From assembly GCF_050920415.1 (NCBI RefSeq), contig NZ_CP169309.1: a DNA stretch of 64,000 bases, one strand, 5' to 3'. Positions within the stretch are counted from its first letter, which is position 1; each line of letters starts with the position of its first letter. Origin of the DNA: Escherichia coli. GTDB taxonomy: Bacteria > Pseudomonadota > Gammaproteobacteria > Enterobacterales > Enterobacteriaceae. The notes beneath the pieces are model-generated. The model was given only the letters and a program-made list of their open reading frames with translations. It had not been told where the DNA came from and did not search any database. The translations under genes were made by a program, and so were the position numbers. This document shows positions 8,307 through 26,532 of the stretch, in pieces.

Positions 8307-9791
8307 TTAAAATCCGCGCAGGCGCTTAGGTAACATAAGGCCCATTGCCTGAGGCTGGCTTAATTCAGTGATACCCCATACCATTGCGTCGAGGCGGTCC
8401 GGGGATTTTTTAGCGGTAGCTGGCACGTATTCCATCATTTGATTTTCCAGCGTGTACAGGCTGCCTGTGTGGGCCACCCTTCCCTGTGCATACAGTGCCG
8501 ATATTGGCTCGGCGCGGGCGAATTTACCTTTGCTTGCGTGCACCTTAACAATGCGGCCTTTGAATCCGGCATTACGTAGCGTGGCTTCCGCCATCTCCCC
8601 GCCCTGGTTTGTTTCGATAACTATCGCGTCAGCTTCATGGATCTCATAAGCGTTCATTGCGGCTTGCGCCCAGTCGTTAGGAGACATGCGGCCTGAGTAG
8701 TCGCCGTCTACTGAATATTGCGCGTGCTTACCACCACCATAAGCGGAACAAGCCATAATCCCTGTTTCGTCAGACTCTTCCGATGATGTTGTTGCCGGGT
8801 CAATGGCTATCACCGTGCGGATCTTGTCCTGCGTTATCTGCATCCGGTGAGCGGCGGTTATCATCGCTTCAGTCCATAACGCGCCTTCTTCGTCGAATTT
8901 ACGCGGGCGCTGCATGTACTGGGCCTCAAATGACCGTCTGTGCGCCTTCAGTCCGGCTTCATGGCTGTCATTGTGCTTTTTAGGCCATAGCCAGCCGTCC
9001 GGCAGGTTGTGAGCAATAGGGATGGCGAATTCGTTTTCCGGGTACAGATCCCAATAGTCGATGCTATTGTCGATCTTCACTGGCAGGTTAAGGTGATACC
9101 ATTTCTCACCACTGCCACCGCGTAACAGGTAGCCGGACAAATCATCGTAGTGGATGCGCTGCATAATGACGATCACGGGCGTGGTTTGCACTGCCAGACG
9201 TGAAGCCAGCGTGTCGTTATAGTTGGTCTTTACCTTCTCCCGCATCACATCAGAGTAAGCGTCAGCGGGCTTTAATGGGTCGTCGATAATCATCGCGCCG
9301 TTAAAGCCTGGCTCCATGTAACCAGCACGAAAACCCGTAATCTGACCGTGTGACGATGCGGCATATATCCCGCCGCCCTGTTCCGTCCACCACATCGATT
9401 TACTGTTGGCATCGTTGCGGATCTTCATGGGCCATAGCTTTTGGTATTCCTGCGAACAAACCATGCTTCTGACTGTCGATGAATTGAGTAATGCCAGATT
9501 GTCGGAATAGGAAACATGAAGGAAGCGTGTGCGGGGATTTATTGCGAGGGACCGCGCCATCATATTGATGGTTGCGATCATGGTTTTACCGTACCCTGGG
9601 GGGATGTTAATGATGAGGCGGGTAATCTCACCATTAATAACACGCTGTAGCGCATCACGGATGGCTATGTGGTGTCCTGAGATTAACATCTTCGTTCCGT
9701 TTGCTTGCTTGTAGAAGTAACGGTTGAAGAACAGGCCATCGTTTTCACATTTTGACTGAATAACCCTTTCTTTGATGGACAACATAATCAC
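8307..9791 (-). CDS. terminase large subunit
   Basis: 494 aa; Walker A-like PPGYGKT motif near the N-terminus, nuclease-like C-terminal half; follows terS. Confidence 0.6.
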   Translation of the reverse strand: MIMLSIKERVIQSKCENDGLFFNRYFYKQANGTKMLISGHHIAIRDALQRVINGEITRLIINIPPGYGKTMIATINMMARSLAINPRTRFLHVSYSDNLALLNSSTVRSMVCSQEYQKLWPMKIRNDANSKSMWWTEQGGGIYAASSHGQITGFRAGYMEPGFNGAMIIDDPLKPADAYSDVMREKVKTNYNDTLASRLAVQTTPVIVIMQRIHYDDLSGYLLRGGSGEKWYHLNLPVKIDNSIDYWDLYPENEFAIPIAHNLPDGWLWPKKHNDSHEAGLKAHRRSFEAQYMQRPRKFDEEGALWTEAMITAAHRMQITQDKIRTVIAIDPATTSSEESDETGIMACSAYGGGKHAQYSVDGDYSGRMSPNDWAQAAMNAYEIHEADAIVIETNQGGEMAEATLRNAGFKGRIVKVHASKGKFARAEPISALYAQGRVAHTGSLYTLENQMMEYVPATAKKSPDRLDAMVWGITELSQPQAMGLMLPKRLRGF

Positions 9792-10273
9792 ACCTCGTCT
9801 TCTACTTCCTGGACGATGCGGGCGATCTCTTCTTTCGTGACTTCAACCTGGACGGGCGCTTCTTCCTTGTTGCCAATAATCTCTTGTGTGACGCGTTCGC
9901 CATATTTACGCGGTTGCAGTTTTGCCAGTAACCATTTGCGCGTTTCAATCATTAGTTGGTGGCGGCGTAGTTGGTCTTTATCAACGTTTTTAGCATCATC
10001 AGCAATGTCGATGATTTCATCAGCTAATACCTCGAAACCGATCTCCTTCGCGCGCATATACATGTCCGAAAATTCAGGCACATCCCTAAACCACTTAAGA
10101 ATTGTTGAACGTGATGGCATACCAGGCATCTTCGAAATTTTGTTAACGCTCTGACCGTCCGCCACCAGCTCACAAATCTCTAACGCCTTTTCTTCGGTAT
10201 AACCATGCGGACGGCCCACCTTTTTAGCGGCTGGCTTTTTGTCGTCAGCATTTGCCTTTTTAGTGCGGGCCAT
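9788..10273 (-). CDS. terminase small subunit
   Basis: 161 aa, N-terminal HTH-like segment, acidic C-terminus, 4-nt overlap with terL. Confidence 0.5.
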   Translation of the reverse strand: MARTKKANADDKKPAAKKVGRPHGYTEEKALEICELVADGQSVNKISKMPGMPSRSTILKWFRDVPEFSDMYMRAKEIGFEVLADEIIDIADDAKNVDKDQLRRHQLMIETRKWLLAKLQPRKYGERVTQEIIGNKEEAPVQVEVTKEEIARIVQEVEDEV

Positions 10274-10283
10274 ATTTCACCTC

Positions 10284-10367
10284 TCAATATTTATTGATGA
10301 TATATACGCAAGCTACAAAACTTGCACAGTATGTTAATACTTCCAACCAGTCGAATAGCTCTTTCAT
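10284..10367 (-). CDS. small hydrophobic peptide 1 (27 aa, MKELFDWLEVLTYCASFVACVYIINKY)
   Basis: ATG 10367 to TGA 10284; single predicted TM helix; first member of a nine-gene tandem array. Confidence 0.4.
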   Translation of the reverse strand: MKELFDWLEVLTYCASFVACVYIINKY

Positions 10368-10377
10368 TGTTTACCCT

Positions 10378-10449
10378 TTACATAATCGAAAGCGCCCAGG
10401 TAATAAGGACGATAGCCAAAACCATGCAGATAAAATCTGACTCTCTCAT
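10378..10449 (-). CDS. small hydrophobic peptide 2 (23 aa, MRESDFICMVLAIVLITWALSIM)
   Basis: AAGGTGG SD 7 nt upstream of the ATG; single TM helix; 10-nt gap to the next ORF. Confidence 0.45.
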   Translation of the reverse strand: MRESDFICMVLAIVLITWALSIM

Positions 10450-10524
10450 ATTGTCCACCTTGTTTACGCGAAGAAAACAATAACAGCTAACAGCGTGCAT
10501 ATAGCCATAATTAAGAAATCACTA

Positions 10525-10599
10525 TCAGACATTGATAATCACTCCCACGATAATTAACGCTGCTATACATACGAACAATACAGCTTCGATAACATCCAT
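10525..10599 (-). CDS. small hydrophobic peptide 3 (24 aa, MDVIEAVLFVCIAALIIVGVIINV)
   Basis: AGGTGAG SD upstream; single TM helix. Confidence 0.45.
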   Translation of the reverse strand: MDVIEAVLFVCIAALIIVGVIINV

Positions 10600-10607
10600 T
10601 CGCTCAC

Positions 10608-10676
10608 CTATTGAGTTAGCGCGGTCATGGTAAGAACAATCGCAACGATCAGGAAAAAGAAATCAAGCCATTTCAT
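10608..10676 (-). CDS. small hydrophobic peptide 4 (22 aa, MKWLDFFFLIVAIVLTMTALTQ)
   Basis: GGGAG SD; start overlaps the stop of peptide 5 (ATGA); single TM helix. Confidence 0.45.
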   Translation of the reverse strand: MKWLDFFFLIVAIVLTMTALTQ

Positions 10677-10753
10677 TTTTTAAACTCCCGATAAACATCT
10701 ACGGCAATCACTGTAATAACAGCCACCAGCAATAGCATTTCATATGCGTTCAT
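10673..10753 (-). CDS. small hydrophobic peptide 5 (26 aa, MNAYEMLLLVAVITVIAVDVYREFKK)
   Basis: AGGTGAA SD; single TM helix; translationally coupled to peptide 4. Confidence 0.45.
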   Translation of the reverse strand: MNAYEMLLLVAVITVIAVDVYREFKK

Positions 10754-10761
10754 GCTTTCAC

Positions 10762-10836
10762 CTATACAACGTTATTCCACCAGAAATAGATAATGACTGC
10801 GACCAACGACCACCAGATGAGATCGTAAATGTTCAT
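10762..10836 (-). CDS. small hydrophobic peptide 6 (24 aa, MNIYDLIWWSLVAVIIYFWWNNVV)
   Basis: Single TM helix, Trp-rich; 8-nt gap to peptide 5; weak SD. Confidence 0.35.
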   Translation of the reverse strand: MNIYDLIWWSLVAVIIYFWWNNVV

Positions 10837-10848
10837 GATTAAATACCG

Positions 10849-10923
10849 TCAGCTCTCAATGAATATCATGATCGCCAGCCATACAGCGACGCAGGCAGAA
10901 AGAACAATAAGCGGATCAATCAT
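10849..10923 (-). CDS. small hydrophobic peptide 7 (24 aa, MIDPLIVLSACVAVWLAIMIFIES)
   Basis: GGGTGG-like SD; single TM helix. Confidence 0.4.
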   Translation of the reverse strand: MIDPLIVLSACVAVWLAIMIFIES

Positions 10924-10935
10924 ATTGCCACCCAT

Positions 10936-11031
10936 CTAATATTTGCTCATTACGGTTATAAGCACGGCGATAACGAAGCCAACCAGAAATATAGATATAC
11001 CTATTAATCCGGCGATGATGCTTTCGTCCAT
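10936..11031 (-). CDS. small hydrophobic peptide 8 (31 aa, MDESIIAGLIGISIFLVGFVIAVLITVMSKY)
   Basis: Single TM helix; start 2 nt after the stop of peptide 9. Confidence 0.4.
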   Translation of the reverse strand: MDESIIAGLIGISIFLVGFVIAVLITVMSKY

Positions 11032-11033
11032 AA

Positions 11034-11123
11034 CTAATCCTGCATAGACATAACCACCAGAAACAAGCAAAGGATGAATCCAGCCGCCATCCCACCGATG
11101 AAAGTTAGTATTGATGCGATCAT
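11034..11123 (-). CDS. small hydrophobic peptide 9 (29 aa, MIASILTFIGGMAAGFILCLFLVVMSMQD)
   Basis: Starts 2 nt after the stop of the upstream 176-aa gene; GAGG SD; single TM helix. Confidence 0.4.
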   Translation of the reverse strand: MIASILTFIGGMAAGFILCLFLVVMSMQD

Positions 11124-11125
11124 AA

Positions 11126-11656
11126 TCAGCCTCGTTTAAAGCTCATAACACGCGGTACAAGCGCTTCTTTTGCTTTCGGCTTACGTTTGCCTTTCTTTGC
11201 GGGTTTTTCTTCCTTCGGCTGTTCTAATGCCTGCTCGACGACTTCAGCCGCCTGCATTGCCGCTACTTGTGCTTCGTTTGATTCAGCCAGGATAGGGAAA
11301 AATGCATCGAAGATACGGCCTACCATGTAAGCGTAAGTCTCATTCGCCGGGTGAGTTGGATCAGTGATCGCCACGACGCCAACATCACTTAAAACGTGGA
11401 ATGTAGTGTGAGCGCATTCATGTACCAGCGTTCCTAACTCATTGTCGAATACTGCGATCACGTAGAAGTTACCGCCTTTCTCACCAGTGCAAGTAAGCGT
11501 CAATCCTCCAGCCAGTTCGAAATCAGGTTCGATTGGAATTCCTGCCTTTTCGCAAAATTCATAAAACATCTCGCGGGTCGGGCAAAAGAAAACGGTTGTA
11601 TGCTCAAAGAGCGGGATCTTGAATTGAGGCAACTTAATGCCTTTAGCCTTAGCCAT
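11126..11656 (-). CDS. hypothetical protein with HExxH motif (possible SprT-like zinc-metallopeptidase fold), basic C-terminal tail
   Basis: 176 aa; AGGAG SD; motif LVHECAHTTFH; lysine-rich C-terminus. Confidence 0.4.
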   Translation of the reverse strand: MAKAKGIKLPQFKIPLFEHTTVFFCPTREMFYEFCEKAGIPIEPDFELAGGLTLTCTGEKGGNFYVIAVFDNELGTLVHECAHTTFHVLSDVGVVAITDPTHPANETYAYMVGRIFDAFFPILAESNEAQVAAMQAAEVVEQALEQPKEEKPAKKGKRKPKAKEALVPRVMSFKRG

Positions 11657-11983
11657 CAGAATAATCTCCTGTCTGGTTTGCTTTTACTTCCTGTTTATAC
11701 AGCGGAAGGAATGACATAAAACACTGAAAACGGCGCTTCATCAGTACCGTTTCCAGAATTTTATAAAACTGGACCTGCTTAACATCTCTGATAAACAGAT
11801 CCGGGCGCTCGTCCTACGCATGGCAGGTGAGTGAATGGCGCTTTCTTCTACCCGGGTAGCGCCGACCTGTTAATGGGATGGATGATCCGGTATTACGTGT
11901 TTTTGACTATTCCGCCGTCGCTCGCGGGAAGGATTGCCCCGGTTATGGCTGGCTGGCGGAAACGGCGACACGTCCACGCGCTG

Positions 11984-12454
11984 TTATTTTTTGCGTAAGC
12001 ACTGCGTTTTGATATAGCTCTGAAGTCCGGTGATCTTCGCGTCTTTCTCTTTTAGTTGTTCTCTGAGGGATAGATAAGCCGATTCAGCGTCGGGAGTGAG
12101 TCTACAGGTGGCTCCATCAATGCGGCTGGCGGTTCCGGTATTGTCGAGTAATCGCACTGGCTCGGCGTTGACGTGCAACCGGATAGTACCGCTATCAATG
12201 CCTGCACGCAGATCGGCAATGTCAGATCTGATAGCTTTAATTTCATCGTGATACCTCTTATCAAGTTTTGACAGTTCGGCGTTTCGCTCCTTCATCTGCT
12301 GAATAGTGTTACTTGCTGTTTTTAGTGCGCCTTGCGTCACCGTGACTTCTTCCTGTAACCTTGCCGCCTCACCGTGGTAATAACATGTAACGGCAGCTAG
12401 CCCGGCAATAATGCAAACAACAACGGCGATGATTAACGCCTTTACCTTGTCCAT
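11984..12454 (-). CDS. i-spanin (Rz-like)
   Basis: 156 aa; N-terminal TM anchor, coiled-coil periplasmic domain; overlaps the endolysin 3' end; embedded Rz1 frame. Confidence 0.6.
12052..12246 (-). CDS. o-spanin (Rz1-like lipoprotein) embedded in the Rz frame
   Basis: Alternate frame inside Rz; signal peptide with LSGC lipobox; proline-rich mature part. Confidence 0.5.
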   Translation of the reverse strand: MKLKLSDLTLPICVQALIAVLSGCTSTPSQCDYSTIPEPPAALMEPPVDSLPTLNRLIYPSENN

Positions 12455-12933
12455 GTTTCACCCCATTCGCAAACGGCATATTCAACATCACGGCGATTGA
12501 TTAAACCTTGCCACTGCTTACCGCCAGCATAGATCCAGCGTTTAAGCTGTGCGCACGCTTCTGATTTCTTGCCGTCATTGAGTAGCTTCAATAAGGTTGA
12601 TGTTTTGAAATTGGTTGCGCCTACGTTATAGGCGAATGAATAAAGCGCCGCGCGGGTAAAATCTGATATTTCGACTTTAATATACGGGTCAATCGCTTTT
12701 GCGGTCTTGTGGAGATCTTTGTTTAACAAAGCATCGCATTCTGATTGCGTGTAAGTCTTACCAAGCATGATGTCTTTTCCGGTGTGACCATAGCAAACAG
12801 TCCATACACCGATAACATCACGATACGGATCGTACTCCACGCCTTCTAATGGTTTAACCATCACAGCCGCAATAGCGATCGCCCCACCAGCCGCCGCAGC
12901 AATAATCTTATTCTTCAGCGATTGGCTAATCAT
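12442..12933 (-). CDS. SAR endolysin (T4-lysozyme-like, phage 21 R-type)
   Basis: N-terminal Gly/Ala-rich SAR helix [17 protein letters not shown] then [18 protein letters not shown] catalytic region; start at MISQSL, 1 nt after the holin stop. Confidence 0.7.
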
Positions 12934-12934
12934 G

Positions 12935-13135
12935 TTACTTATTCCCCATTCGCGCGTCGTGTTCCTCTTGCGCTCGTTTGTTCTCCTGTGATTTGAAGTA
13001 ATAATTAACGGCAAATGTGCCTATGGTTGATAAGATACCCACAAATACAGCAACATCATTAATGGTTATCGCACCAAAAAAGGCCGTTACGGCCCCTACT
13101 GCATACGCGCACACCTCCCGTATTTTGTCGAACAT
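12935..13135 (-). CDS. pinholin-type holin (S21-like)
   Basis: 66 aa, two hydrophobic helices, charged C-terminus [15 protein letters not shown] resembling S21; GGAGG SD. Confidence 0.6.
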
Positions 13136-14011: not shown

Positions 14012-14144
14012 CCTCTTTCTCCCCGCCTAAATATTGATATATTTCTTCAGCATTTTCCCCGCGCTCAAAACAATAATGTTCAAACATGCGCCAGTGTTCA
14101 CTAAGAAACATAACAATAAAATTGTTAACGTATTCGTCATCCAT
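14004..14144 (-). CDS. hypothetical small protein (46 aa, not in the ORF track)
   Basis: ATG 14144 with AGAGGA SD; fills the gap between flanking genes. Confidence 0.35.
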   Translation of the reverse strand: MDDEYVNNFIVMFLSEHWRMFEHYCFERGENAEEIYQYLGGEKEDD

Positions 14145-16066: not shown

Positions 16067-16279
16067 TTAATAACGCTCAAAACTGGCGGAAAAATCAATG
16101 CCTGATATCTCACCGCCACGATAAGTTGGCATAAATCCCCACACATCATCATGATCATCAATCAATACAAGCGCCACGCCAACATCGCTAATCCCATTGC
16201 CATAAACAATGTGAACATCATAAATACGCCCAGGAGTGAAAACGCTGTCATTACTTGAGTATGTGCATTTAACTTGCAT
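16067..16279 (-). CDS. hypothetical protein
   Basis: 70-aa ORF. Confidence 0.35.
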   Translation of the reverse strand: MQVKCTYSSNDSVFTPGRIYDVHIVYGNGISDVGVALVLIDDHDDVWGFMPTYRGGEISGIDFSASFERY

Positions 16280-24281: not shown

Positions 24282-24465
24282 GTAATGACACCTCCCTGAT
24301 AAGTTTGCTTAACTCAATGTTTATTAATCTGCGGAAATGTTGCTTTCCATCAGCAAAGTGCACCAAGTAAATATCACCAACAATGTTATAGTAGTAACAG
24401 CCGCTAAAACCAATTCCTGCCAATTTAGCGTTATCAGGCAACGTATAACCGCCAACATTTTTCAT
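24271..24465 (-). CDS. hypothetical protein, paralog of the adjacent gene
   Basis: 64 aa; GAGGTGA SD. Confidence 0.35.
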   Translation of the reverse strand: MKNVGGYTLPDNAKLAGIGFSGCYYYNIVGDIYLVHFADGKQHFRRLINIELSKLIREVSLHAI

Positions 24466-24468
24466 ATA

Positions 24469-24561
24469 TCACCTCATATGGTATTCAATAAACCACCTGA
24501 TAAACAGGCATAAGGCAATAAAACCCCAGCAACAGCACATATAAAACAATGTGTCGTCCAT
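24469..24561 (-). CDS. small hydrophobic peptide (30 aa, MDDTLFYMCCCWGFIALCLFIRWFIEYHMR)
   Basis: ATG 3 nt after the upstream stop; TGAGG SD; single TM helix; not in the ORF track. Confidence 0.35.
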   Translation of the reverse strand: MDDTLFYMCCCWGFIALCLFIRWFIEYHMR

Positions 24562-26418: not shown

Positions 26419-26532
26419 TCACATATTAGTAATCAGTTTTATGATCGCTACCGTGATATAAAGAGAAGCAGCAAGATAAGCAACAGCTATTGCAACTCCA
26501 GCGGATAACGCTGCTATTTTGATTATGTTCAT
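26419..26532 (-). CDS. small hydrophobic peptide (37 aa)
   Basis: MNIIKIAALSAGVAIAVAYLAASLYITVAIIKLITNM; GGAGG SD; ATGA overlap with the upstream gene. Confidence 0.4.
   Translation of the reverse strand: MNIIKIAALSAGVAIAVAYLAASLYITVAIIKLITNM

Follow-up and report, generated by a model that had tools for sequence, protein, structure and literature searches.

Ten very short open reading frames (ORFs) lie head to tail on the minus strand at positions 10284-11123 of a 64,000-nt stretch of Escherichia coli DNA (RefSeq assembly GCF_050920415.1, contig NZ_CP169309.1; hereafter the window), and by the evidence of their conservation they are genuine protein-coding genes under purifying selection. 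The region belongs to a gut E. coli prophage of the mEpimmI (mEp021-type) group, with 84-92% identity to relatives, and sequence comparison showed a modular, lineage-specific array of such genes in every mEpimmI-type (mEp021-like) coliphage, placed between a gp49-like gene and terS, the gene of the terminase small subunit. As to function, we tentatively favour, at less than an even chance, a reading in which the encoded peptides would act late in infection as helix-binding modulators, in the inner membrane, of the phage's pinholin/signal-arrest-release (SAR) endolysin lysis programme.

The sequence-only reading that drew attention to this region had described nine ORFs, set 0-12 nt apart with one ATGA overlap. 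Minus-strand ORFs of the claimed size, 22-31 codons, are present at this place and all begin with ATG, but ten were counted. The distances between them, in order from cassette A1 to cassette J (Table 1), are 2, 12, 12, 8, -4, 8, -8, 14 and 10 nt, so the spacing runs from -8 to +14 nt. The ATGA overlap of E and F (-4 nt) was confirmed; it is not the sole overlap, as G and H also share 8 nt (ATGTCTGA, -8 nt). The array was also said to lie between the lysis cassette and terS, which is correct on the terS side only: at its other end it abuts the gp49-like gene, and the lysis cassette ends at 11984. The quoted Shine-Dalgarno (SD) strings are real, with AAGGTGG before I, AGGTGAG before G, GGGAG before F and H, and AGGTGAA before E. 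The duplex energies of the array ORFs with the anti-SD sequence range from -3.4 to -7.0 kcal/mol, stronger than the mean of the window-wide background (-2.5 ± 2.5 kcal/mol), and SD sites above background were found in related arrays as well.

Coding was assessed in a main sample of 67 arrays, consisting of the window, 7 deposited phages, 12 E. coli prophages and 47 IMG/VR contigs; three further divergent contigs were joined to this sample later. In every complete locus the layout is constant, with the gp49-like gene, the mini-ORF array and terS in this order. The 67 arrays contain 628 mini-ORFs (235 unique peptides) that sort into about 20 families. The ratio of non-synonymous to synonymous polymorphism (pN/pS), obtained from Nei-Gojobori counts over unique alleles, is 0.25 overall in the ORF frame and 0.14-0.35 in each of 16 families, compared with 0.88-1.54 in the other frames; the wobble-sharing antisense frame gives 0.35, which is an expected artefact. 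The corresponding values in the same genomes are 0.19 for terS and 0.09 for gp49. The ORFs fill a median of 92% of the gp49-terS interval, only about 8 of about 630 cassettes look decayed, and the ORFs are kept despite single-base spacer indels that shift their relative frame, as seen between mEp010 and mEp554. Among 501 junctions, 33% overlap and 60% are 0-15 nt apart, together 93%. Loss of the minus-strand frames in related phages had been named in advance as an observation that would count against these genes, as had signs of a structured RNA or of plus-strand coding. In 69 relatives the minus-strand frames are kept under purifying selection, and neither an RNA signal nor credible plus-strand coding was found.

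That the array does not consist of genes at all, and is instead T-rich DNA with fortuitous ORFs, a packaging (cos/pac) site, a structured RNA or sequence coding on the opposite strand, is extremely improbable and largely refuted. Such a view could draw on base composition, as the GC content falls to 38-41% across the array (window 10200-11000) compared with 46-54% in the flanks; on opposite-strand ORFs of at least 40 codons in 58/60 arrays; and on the gene callers and RefSeq, which mark almost none of the mini-ORFs. The chaining of ORFs for transmembrane (TM)-like peptides is, however, far beyond chance, since 9-10 are chained in the array whereas 2000 dinucleotide-preserving shuffles reach a maximum of 4, and elsewhere in the window no more than 3 are chained per 852 nt. 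Frame-specific purifying selection in all families also speaks against this view. The array RNA folds no better than shuffles (z = -0.11), and Rfam, searched at both thresholds over the array region, gave no match, including to Sib, Rdl, OhsC, IstR and Sok; the structured RNA was rejected on these grounds. Opposite-strand coding was rejected because the ORFs concerned differ among arrays in both length and start codon, occupy 35% of the strand and are an expected by-product of xTx-rich sense codons. The coding strand of the array is strongly T-rich, in keeping with the xTx codons of hydrophobic residues.

Table 1. The ten cassettes of the array and the genes around it in the window. Presence is the number of arrays of the main sample that carry the cassette; energies after SD are those of the anti-SD duplex in kcal/mol.
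Feature	Coordinates	Strand	Product	Presence	pN/pS	Remarks
Cassette A1	11034..11123	-	29 aa, MIASILTFIGGMAAGFILCLFLVVMSMQD	17/67	0.28	start 2 nt after gp49 stop; SD -5.9; predicted insertion energy -2.5 kcal/mol
Cassette A2	10936..11031	-	31 aa, MDESIIAGLIGISIFLVGFVIAVLITVMSKY	58/67	0.26	D2, A7, G8 and G11 invariant
Cassette B	10849..10923	-	24 aa, MIDPLIVLSACVAVWLAIMIFIES	64/67	0.30	in-frame upstream ATG at 10935 gives 28 aa
Cassette C	10762..10836	-	24 aa, Trp-rich, MNIYDLIWWSLVAVIIYFWWNNVV	45/67	0.34	paralogue of E
Cassette E	10673..10753	-	26 aa, MNAYEMLLLVAVITVIAVDVYREFKK	65/67	0.24	stop overlaps F start (ATGA); E>F junction -4 nt in 32/34
Cassette F	10608..10676	-	22 aa, MKWLDFFFLIVAIVLTMTALTQ	62/67	0.18	SD GGGAG, -6.9; paralogue of I and I'
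Cassette G	10525..10599	-	24 aa, MDVIEAVLFVCIAALIIVGVIINV	47/67	0.35	8-nt overlap with H; G>H junction -8 nt in 38/38
Cassette H	10464..10532	-	22 aa, MSDSDFLIMAICTLLAVIVFFA	43/67	0.29	SD GGGAG, -6.8; paralogue of I
Cassette I	10378..10449	-	23 aa, MRESDFICMVLAIVLITWALSIM	23/67	0.27	SD AAGGTGG, -7.0
Cassette J	10284..10367	-	27 aa, MKELFDWLEVLTYCASFVACVYIINKY	67/67	0.18	ends 10 nt before terS ATG
gp49-like gene	11126..11656	-	176 aa			phrog_1365; HExxH...NE and basic C-tail; upstream boundary
terS	9788..10273	-	terminase small subunit (Sf6-type)			phrog_1482, E = 1.9e-51; downstream boundary
Class II holin, probably pinholin	12935-13135	-	66 aa, two transmembrane domains (TMDs)			
Lysis cassette	12442-13135	-	holin and SAR endolysin			phage-21 type
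Rz	11984-12454	-				embedded Rz1 lipoprotein ORF 12052-12264

Cassette J is the sole cassette found in all arrays examined, which include the later contigs L068, L069 and L075 (L numbers are our handles for the related loci). For cassette B, an SD of GGGTGG precedes the ATG at 10923 (-5.8 kcal/mol), compared with -1.9 kcal/mol at the ATG at 10935, and the former is likely to be the start. A 40-aa ORF that runs from an ATG at 10500 over cassette I was discarded as a spurious extension. A lipobox (LSAC) in cassette B was likewise discarded on inspection, being not conserved (LSLC and LFAC alleles) and having no positively charged n-region ahead of it.

The peptides share a common plan of Met, an acid-bearing tail of 2-6 residues, a hydrophobic stretch of 13-27 residues and a C-tail of 0-8 residues. 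Across the lineage the families are 20-47 aa long; those of the window are 22-31 aa, with a grand average of hydropathicity of 0.8-2.6. The sequence-only reading of separately initiated, single-helix hydrophobic peptides is thus supported. An acidic residue (D/E) lies within residues 2-7 in 198/221 unique peptides, and the mean charge over these peptides is -1.2 for the N-tail and +0.58 for the C-tail. An AxA site is absent from the peptides, and the N-tails are acidic. By the positive-inside rule, this charge distribution suggests an N-out/C-in topology. Insertion energies were calculated with a position-independent Hessa-type scale; for A1, A2, B, F, G, H and I they are -2 to -4.7 kcal/mol, more favourable than for the TMDs of the phage's own holin. 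The predicted insertion of C is marginal because its hydrophobic core is short, and J, with a core of 15 aa, has the lowest hydrophobicity of the cassettes. The helices have low hydrophobic moments (0.08-0.73), with scarcely any polar face, and the peptides are therefore not amphipathic pore-formers. Gly/Ala packing motifs were observed, namely the invariant A7, G8 and G11 of A2, the small-xxx-small motif GGMAAG of A1 and CGMMLG of D2, and the invariant positions suggest helix packing over mere hydrophobicity.

The cassettes follow a kept order, A0/A0b/A1/x13 - A2 - B - C - D2 - E - I' - F - G - H - I - K47 - J, and an array contains 2-13 of them. The 67 arrays show 47 arrangements, and that of the window was found once in the sample. 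J occurs universally and E, B, F and A2 nearly so, while the remaining cassettes are accessory. Junction spacing is the same with or without a given cassette (C>D2 = C>E = 8 nt; B>C = B>E = 11 nt), and the cassettes are therefore gained and lost as exact one-ORF units. Paralogy was examined by hhalign profile-profile comparison with reversed-sequence controls, which gave the groups F/I/I'/H(/G), A0/A0b(/A1) and C/E; judging from these groups, tandem duplication and divergence built at least part of the array. It had been stated earlier that the ORFs are diverged from one another and not a DNA repeat. The second half of this statement is right, as Tandem Repeats Finder (TRF) reported zero tandem repeats in the array, and a DNA repeat was rejected; direct repeats are limited to the 15-21-nt junctions carrying ribosome-binding sites (RBS), e.g. 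ATAGGTGA. Unrelatedness does not hold for the paralogues F/I/I'/H, A0/A0b and C/E.

Certain cassettes occur together or exclude one another. G and H occur together in 38 arrays, G alone in 3 and H alone in 0, whereas I and I' are never found together (0/60 arrays; Fisher p = 9e-6, a value that ignores phylogenetic non-independence), and A0b and A1 are alternatives to each other. Cassette content is nearly uncorrelated with the flanking alleles (Mantel r ~0 for terS and 0.17-0.23 for gp49). Plaque-forming isolates hold 5 (mEp021), 10 (mEp010) and 12 (MagusPhagus) cassettes, and the variation in content is therefore not prophage decay. Two local additions were seen in relatives and are absent from the window. 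In mEp021-type arrays (L002 2165-2235; L006, L047, L052), a non-coding spacer of 59-69 nt between F and J holds a conserved hairpin, GGACGCGCATTTTATGCGCTTCC. In L010 (1084-1230), L017 (1084-1227), L028, L067 and L075 (4373-4504), an extra ORF for a soluble acidic product of 43-48 aa lies between J and terS, e.g. MVSNEELKMADEIRKALDAAENNETVYFSEREVEKMMDEFKLKFEKDN, and is labelled hypothetical in RefSeq.

The coliphages that match the region are mEp021, mEp010, mEp013, mEp044, mEp515, mEp554 and MagusPhagus, and related prophages occur in 34/5426 complete E. coli genomes. The mEpimmI coliphages are Nus-dependent and non-lambdoid (PMC11893012), so the lambda late region, against which the sequence-only reading had measured the array, was the wrong comparison. 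No array was found beyond the mEpimmI group among the terS tblastn relatives opened, among gp49 relatives or in an A2 profile search. The terS relatives opened, all without an array, were HK620, CBW1004C-Prop1 and Pseudomonas phage Flu_PA14_3, and did not include the matches in Sf6-like phages, Ralstonia and Flavobacterium. The A2 profile, run against 1.84 billion representative proteins, matched solely proteins from the same array context.

The array peptides gave no usable match in PHROGs, where the best were families of unknown function at E >= 0.05; NCBIfam contained no relevant match at E <= 1 for any of the ten, and PADLOC none to the array peptides. Exact copies among about 15 billion proteins were found for 2/10 window peptides, and such copies are scarce in the collection because most of the genes fall below the usual 90-nt gene-calling threshold. 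That the ORFs had been missed through length cut-offs, as proposed beforehand, was borne out: RefSeq/PGAP annotates almost none of the mini-ORFs and the mEp021 record none, and where PHANOTATE-based records include some of them, the boundaries are wrong. One such call, mEp010_82 (L003 2176-2319), is a 47-aa coding sequence (CDS) that has the stop of H and overruns all of G, and the PP18000x records contain similar CDSs that merge or mis-start cassettes. Neither these ORFs nor a comparable array is described in the mEpimmI paper, an Enterobacteriaceae microproteome preprint or a phage small-protein review, and searches with the peptide strings were empty. What is new here is the arrangement of small membrane proteins as a dense, combinatorial, lineage-specific array.

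The gp49-like gene was directly upstream of the array in all arrays examined. Its product has the invariant residues H79, E80, H83, N105 and E106 and gave no Pfam match; P22-like Salmonella phages encode homologues of its N-domain (Orf129, 43% identity). The order in those phages is lysis genes, orf118, Orf129, one 134-aa ORF and terS, with no mini-ORFs. By this comparison, the gp49-like gene is a conserved pre-terminase gene, and the slot between it and terS is variable and filled with micropeptide genes only in the mEpimmI lineage. A 'metallopeptidase' beside terS in CBW1004C-Prop1 was considered as a gp49 homologue and rejected (E = 0.087, no HExxH). The neighbours identified with PHROGs are terS, terL, an Rz-like spanin and the endolysin, and PF20901 is recorded on terS of relatives.

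The holin has a charged tail of 20 residues, the N-terminus of the endolysin is Gly/Ala-rich as is typical of a SAR domain, and PF16080 is recorded on the holin/SAR-endolysin cassette of relatives; on these features the lysis system is assigned to the phage-21-type pinholin/SAR class. The holin is closely preceded by a terminator-like hairpin, which is annotated in relatives too. All genes from the holin through the portal are on one strand. Consensus-based scans detected no minus-strand promoter or terminator inside the array; 4 promoter-like sites were found in 3.8 kb, compared with 7.7 expected from shuffles, and none are organised per cassette. Between Rz and the gp49-like gene there is a 327-nt gap (window 11657-11983) with no convincing ORF, which could contain a regulatory or packaging site; at the corresponding place the mEp021 record has the terminator TERM_6, and 30-42-aa ORFs are called there in other records. 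Relatives also carry HNH endonuclease genes (L007 2750-3235, L069 5250-5753, L068 2752-3273) at three kinds of site, gp49/array, terS/terL and endolysin/Rz, which resemble mobile homing-type insertions. Intergenic mini-ORFs of 29-44 aa encoding TM-like peptides were also noticed in the early region (24324-24458, 24469-24561, 26419-26532, 16162-16251 and 14027-14140 (-)); they are isolated or paired and form no array.

Known systems were compared with the array feature by feature. YohP (27 aa), KdpF (29), CydH/YnhF (29), MgtS (31) and AcrZ (49) are examples of small membrane proteins in bacteria. Inner-membrane proteins of this kind, up to 50 aa long, are a described class (PMC7549839). The array peptides resemble them in size, in having a single helix, no signal peptide and their own SD, and in being overlooked by annotation: all are no longer than 50 aa, with one predicted TM helix (marginal for C, E and J) and no signal peptide, and conservation, purifying selection and RBS support them as real genes. 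The mode of action presumed for small inner-membrane proteins is binding to a larger membrane protein. Their genes, however, are scattered, individually regulated and chromosomal, whereas the array places 2-13 genes, some paralogous and others unrelated, head to tail in one phage late operon, and its peptides show no sequence similarity to any curated small-protein family (NCBIfam).

A second resemblance is to coat proteins of filamentous phages. The Pf3 major coat protein has 44 aa, and the minor coat proteins g7p (33 aa) and g9p (32 aa) of Ff are encoded by adjacent, translationally coupled genes. Like these, the array peptides are tiny phage proteins with a single uncleaved helix, an acidic N-tail, a neutral or positive C-flank and no leader, made from overlapping or coupled cistrons, and by analogy the Pf3/Ff type of insertion is the likely model for how they reach the membrane. 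Unlike them, they belong to a tailed siphophage (with terminase, portal and tail genes) whose virion is membrane-free, while Pf3 and Ff coats are structural proteins of filamentous virions. The number and variability of cassettes have no counterpart in those phages, and homology was not detected.

The sequence-only reading had offered type-I-toxin-like membrane peptides as one role, which the organisation of the locus does not bear out. Type I toxins include Ibs (18-19 aa), ShoB (26), DinQ (27), TisB (29), Ldr (35) and Hok (about 50), some of them in tandem (ibs/sib, ldr/rdl). They share with the array peptides a very short, very hydrophobic form (<60 aa) and an inner-membrane location, and are sometimes tandem and often prophage-borne. 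Each toxin unit, however, has its own promoter, structured mRNA and antisense small RNA (sRNA), whereas the array is a tightly coupled polycistron. No dedicated antisense sRNA or promoter per gene was detected, since antisense promoters are not above chance and Rfam is empty; 93% of the 501 junctions leave no room for an mRNA of its own with a long structured 5' untranslated region; and NCBIfam gave no homology at E <= 1 to Ibs, Ldr, ShoB, TisB, Hok, DinQ or Zor.

A holin identity, also suggested at that time, is contradicted by the lack of a charged hydrophilic C-domain (C-tails 0-8 residues, mean charge +0.58), by a position not beside the endolysin, a place already taken by the canonical 66-aa class II holin, but 1.3 kb downstream, beyond Rz, the 327-nt gap and gp49, and by the lack of a holin-family profile, as PHROGs gave no lysis-category match. 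Accessory lysis regulators are known, such as the antiholins S21-71, P1 LydB and T4 RI/RIII, and the Mu gp25 'releasin' for SAR endolysins. These are late phage membrane proteins that tune lysis timing by making TMD contacts with holins or SAR domains, and the array, judging by gene order, would be co-transcribed with a pinholin/SAR-type cassette in a similar way. The known regulators differ in being single genes for proteins of 70-200 aa with soluble domains, beside the holin or endolysin, whereas the array genes are ten, helix-only and distant, and no homology between the two was detected. Multi-peptide operons are found as staphylococcal psm-alpha, with four peptides of about 21 aa, and as the leaderless bacteriocins aureocin A70 and garvicin KS. 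These also encode several leaderless 20-35-aa peptides head to tail on one transcript, but their products are cationic amphipathic peptides that leave the cell through dedicated ABC transporters and target other cells. In the array, the peptides are acidic or neutral in charge with helices that are hydrophobic all round (moments 0.08-0.73), and the neighbouring genes, which are gp49-like, terS, terL and lysis genes, include neither an exporter nor an immunity gene. By analogy, then, the array would work most like bacterial small membrane proteins, with insertion like that of Pf3 coat and Ff g7p/g9p, and it is a member of no sequence family.

Because the array is on one strand, with no internal promoter or terminator and with overlaps or gaps of at most 15 nt, late and coupled translation from a polycistronic mRNA is presumed; the tight junctions and the strand shared with the lysis and packaging genes point the same way. 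Given their charges, the peptides would then enter the inner membrane in an N-out/C-in orientation and with no signal peptide, by a YidC-type route such as that of Pf3 coat and Ff g7p/g9p, and once there may contact TM helices and so modulate the membrane events that end infection. Phage 21-type lysis fires on membrane depolarisation and depends on TMD-TMD interactions. The firing time of such a depolarisation-triggered pinholin/SAR-endolysin could be tuned by the peptides, the differing cassette sets of different phages would set lysis timing, and the universal cassette J may also be coupled to terS expression. We lean towards lysis modulation because the array is apparently co-transcribed with the lysis system, late-only and helix-only with packing motifs, and because systems of this type are governed by TMD contacts and membrane energisation. 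The invariant Gly/Ala residues, the exclusivity of I and I' and the obligate linkage of G and H suggest specific helix contacts over generic hydrophobicity.

Several observations weigh against lysis modulation. The array is physically coupled to terS and not to the lysis genes, Rz being separated from it by the gp49-like gene and the 327-nt gap. The holin hardly varies, whereas the array is hypervariable, and other pinholin/SAR phages, as well as P22-like gp49-like/terS loci, have no such array. The hydrophobic cores of C, E and J are 13-15 residues long, so that their insertion is marginal and they may not span the membrane, and arrays of merely 2-3 cassettes occur (L069, L046). With 47 arrangements among 67 arrays, the locus resembles an accessory or conflict locus more closely than it does a housekeeping timer. 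Covariation of holin and array (Mantel r = 0.36-0.40) was considered as support and rejected, as it is gone (r = -0.11) without two outlier genomes. These outliers, L086 and L121 (IMG/VR 2700989400_000004 and 3300045988_076772), are the only genomes with a divergent holin, at about 50% identity; they are without F, G and H and carry the rare x15 or x11, an anecdote of n = 2 behind the spurious Mantel signal.

A role in conflict is the close rival, which we rate as nearly as likely as lysis modulation and likewise at less than an even chance. The peptides would be TM-helix ligands that block inner-membrane proteins of the host or of competitor phages, forming a late repertoire for superinfection exclusion or counter-defence whose cassettes would be shuffled to suit the hosts and competitors met; possible targets are ManYZ and PtsG (DNA entry), abortive-infection membrane effectors, transporters and proteases. 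The hypervariable content in a kept order (about 20 families, 2-13 per genome, 47 orders among 67 arrays), which is almost independent of the flanking alleles, fits such a role, as do exact-ORF gain and loss, the expansion of paralogues with their mutual exclusivity, and purifying selection within families if the targets are conserved. There is precedent in DicB, a small prophage protein that blocks phage DNA entry (PMC6832061), and in the P22 inner-membrane protein SieA, which does the same (PMC10461980). However, the consensus-based scan detected no promoter for expression from the repressed prophage, which makes classical lysogen-expressed exclusion unlikely; counter-defence genes are usually early rather than late; PADLOC and PHROGs gave zero matches; and selection within families is purifying, not diversifying. 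A broader reading, which we consider unlikely, treats the array as a combinatorial library of TM helices, with more than 20 families of 20-47 aa, each docking on a different inner-membrane protein and shuffled as one-ORF cassettes; the targets, under the same estimate, would be host transporters, DNA-entry factors, membrane-acting defence effectors or the phage's own pinholin.

Three further explanations were weighed. If the peptides were generic membrane poisons acting much as type I toxins do, their late accumulation would thin or depolarise the inner membrane and so stop PMF-dependent processes of the host in a dose-dependent manner that is not sequence-specific, and their very short, extremely hydrophobic nature, with a size like that of Ibs, ShoB, TisB and DinQ, hydrophobic cores of 13-18 residues that are shorter than the bilayer span, and a cassette number that varies as a dose model predicts would all be accounted for. 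This is nevertheless improbable, because the amino-acid constraint is as tight as for terS (pN/pS 0.25 compared with 0.19), pure dose or composition does not predict the kept motifs and order or the exclusivity of paralogues, the moments of 0.08-0.73 leave nearly no polar face for pore formation, and the organisational hallmarks of type I systems are all missing. Slightly less probable again is a modular hetero-oligomeric assembly in the inner membrane, in which single helices bundle into a late channel or scaffold, comparable to the psbEFLJ/petGLMN operons. Tight translational coupling is typical of stoichiometric complexes, and the G-H linkage, the kept small-xxx-small motifs and the kept cassette order agree with one; but only J is universal, viable phages have 5-12 cassettes and some arrays 2-3, which an obligate complex would not tolerate. 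Least probable of the three is a translational relay, in which the ORFs would hand ribosomes on between gp49 and terS and so determine how much TerS is made, while the peptides are inert. It is favoured by the end of the array, which invariably lies 9-10 nt, or one small ORF, short of terS, by the universality of J, by stops embedded in the next SD (TAGGTGA) and by frequent ATGA overlaps. A relay would constrain ORF presence only, yet the families show pN/pS of 0.14-0.35 and invariant residues; it has no need for hydrophobic helices or for 5-13 steps, and P22-like phages, whose flanking genes are the same, do without one. Overall, the peptides are too constrained for inert relay by-products or generic membrane poisons, and the composition of the arrays is too variable for an obligate fixed complex.

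Phages of the mEpimmI group are reported to be as prevalent as lambdoid phages in human faecal samples (PMC11893012). The block described here accounts for about 1.5% of the genome, with 2-13 genes per phage and about 20 families under selection as strong as that on the terminase, and it has been missed by annotation and by PHROGs and almost wholly by the collection of about 15 billion proteins; it is a concrete, experimentally tractable case of the phage 'dark' micro-proteome, in which gene-length cut-offs of 90 nt systematically conceal whole loci. mEp021 grows on K-12 and has five cassettes, B-E-I'-F-J; the natural variants are a ready presence/absence series, and the exclusivity of paralogues and the G-H linkage lead to predictions that genetics can test. 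Should the peptides prove to be specific helix-binding modulators, minimal TM inhibitors of E. coli inner-membrane proteins could be drawn from them, and the array would be a new kind of hypervariable accessory locus; if they tune only lysis, the set of known modes of pinholin/SAR regulation would be widened. If, instead, the array is a library of helices, it would be a phage 'helix repertoire' that reprogrammes the host membrane at the end of infection, and an unrecognised class of accessory locus, hidden from annotation because every gene in it is under the caller's length threshold.

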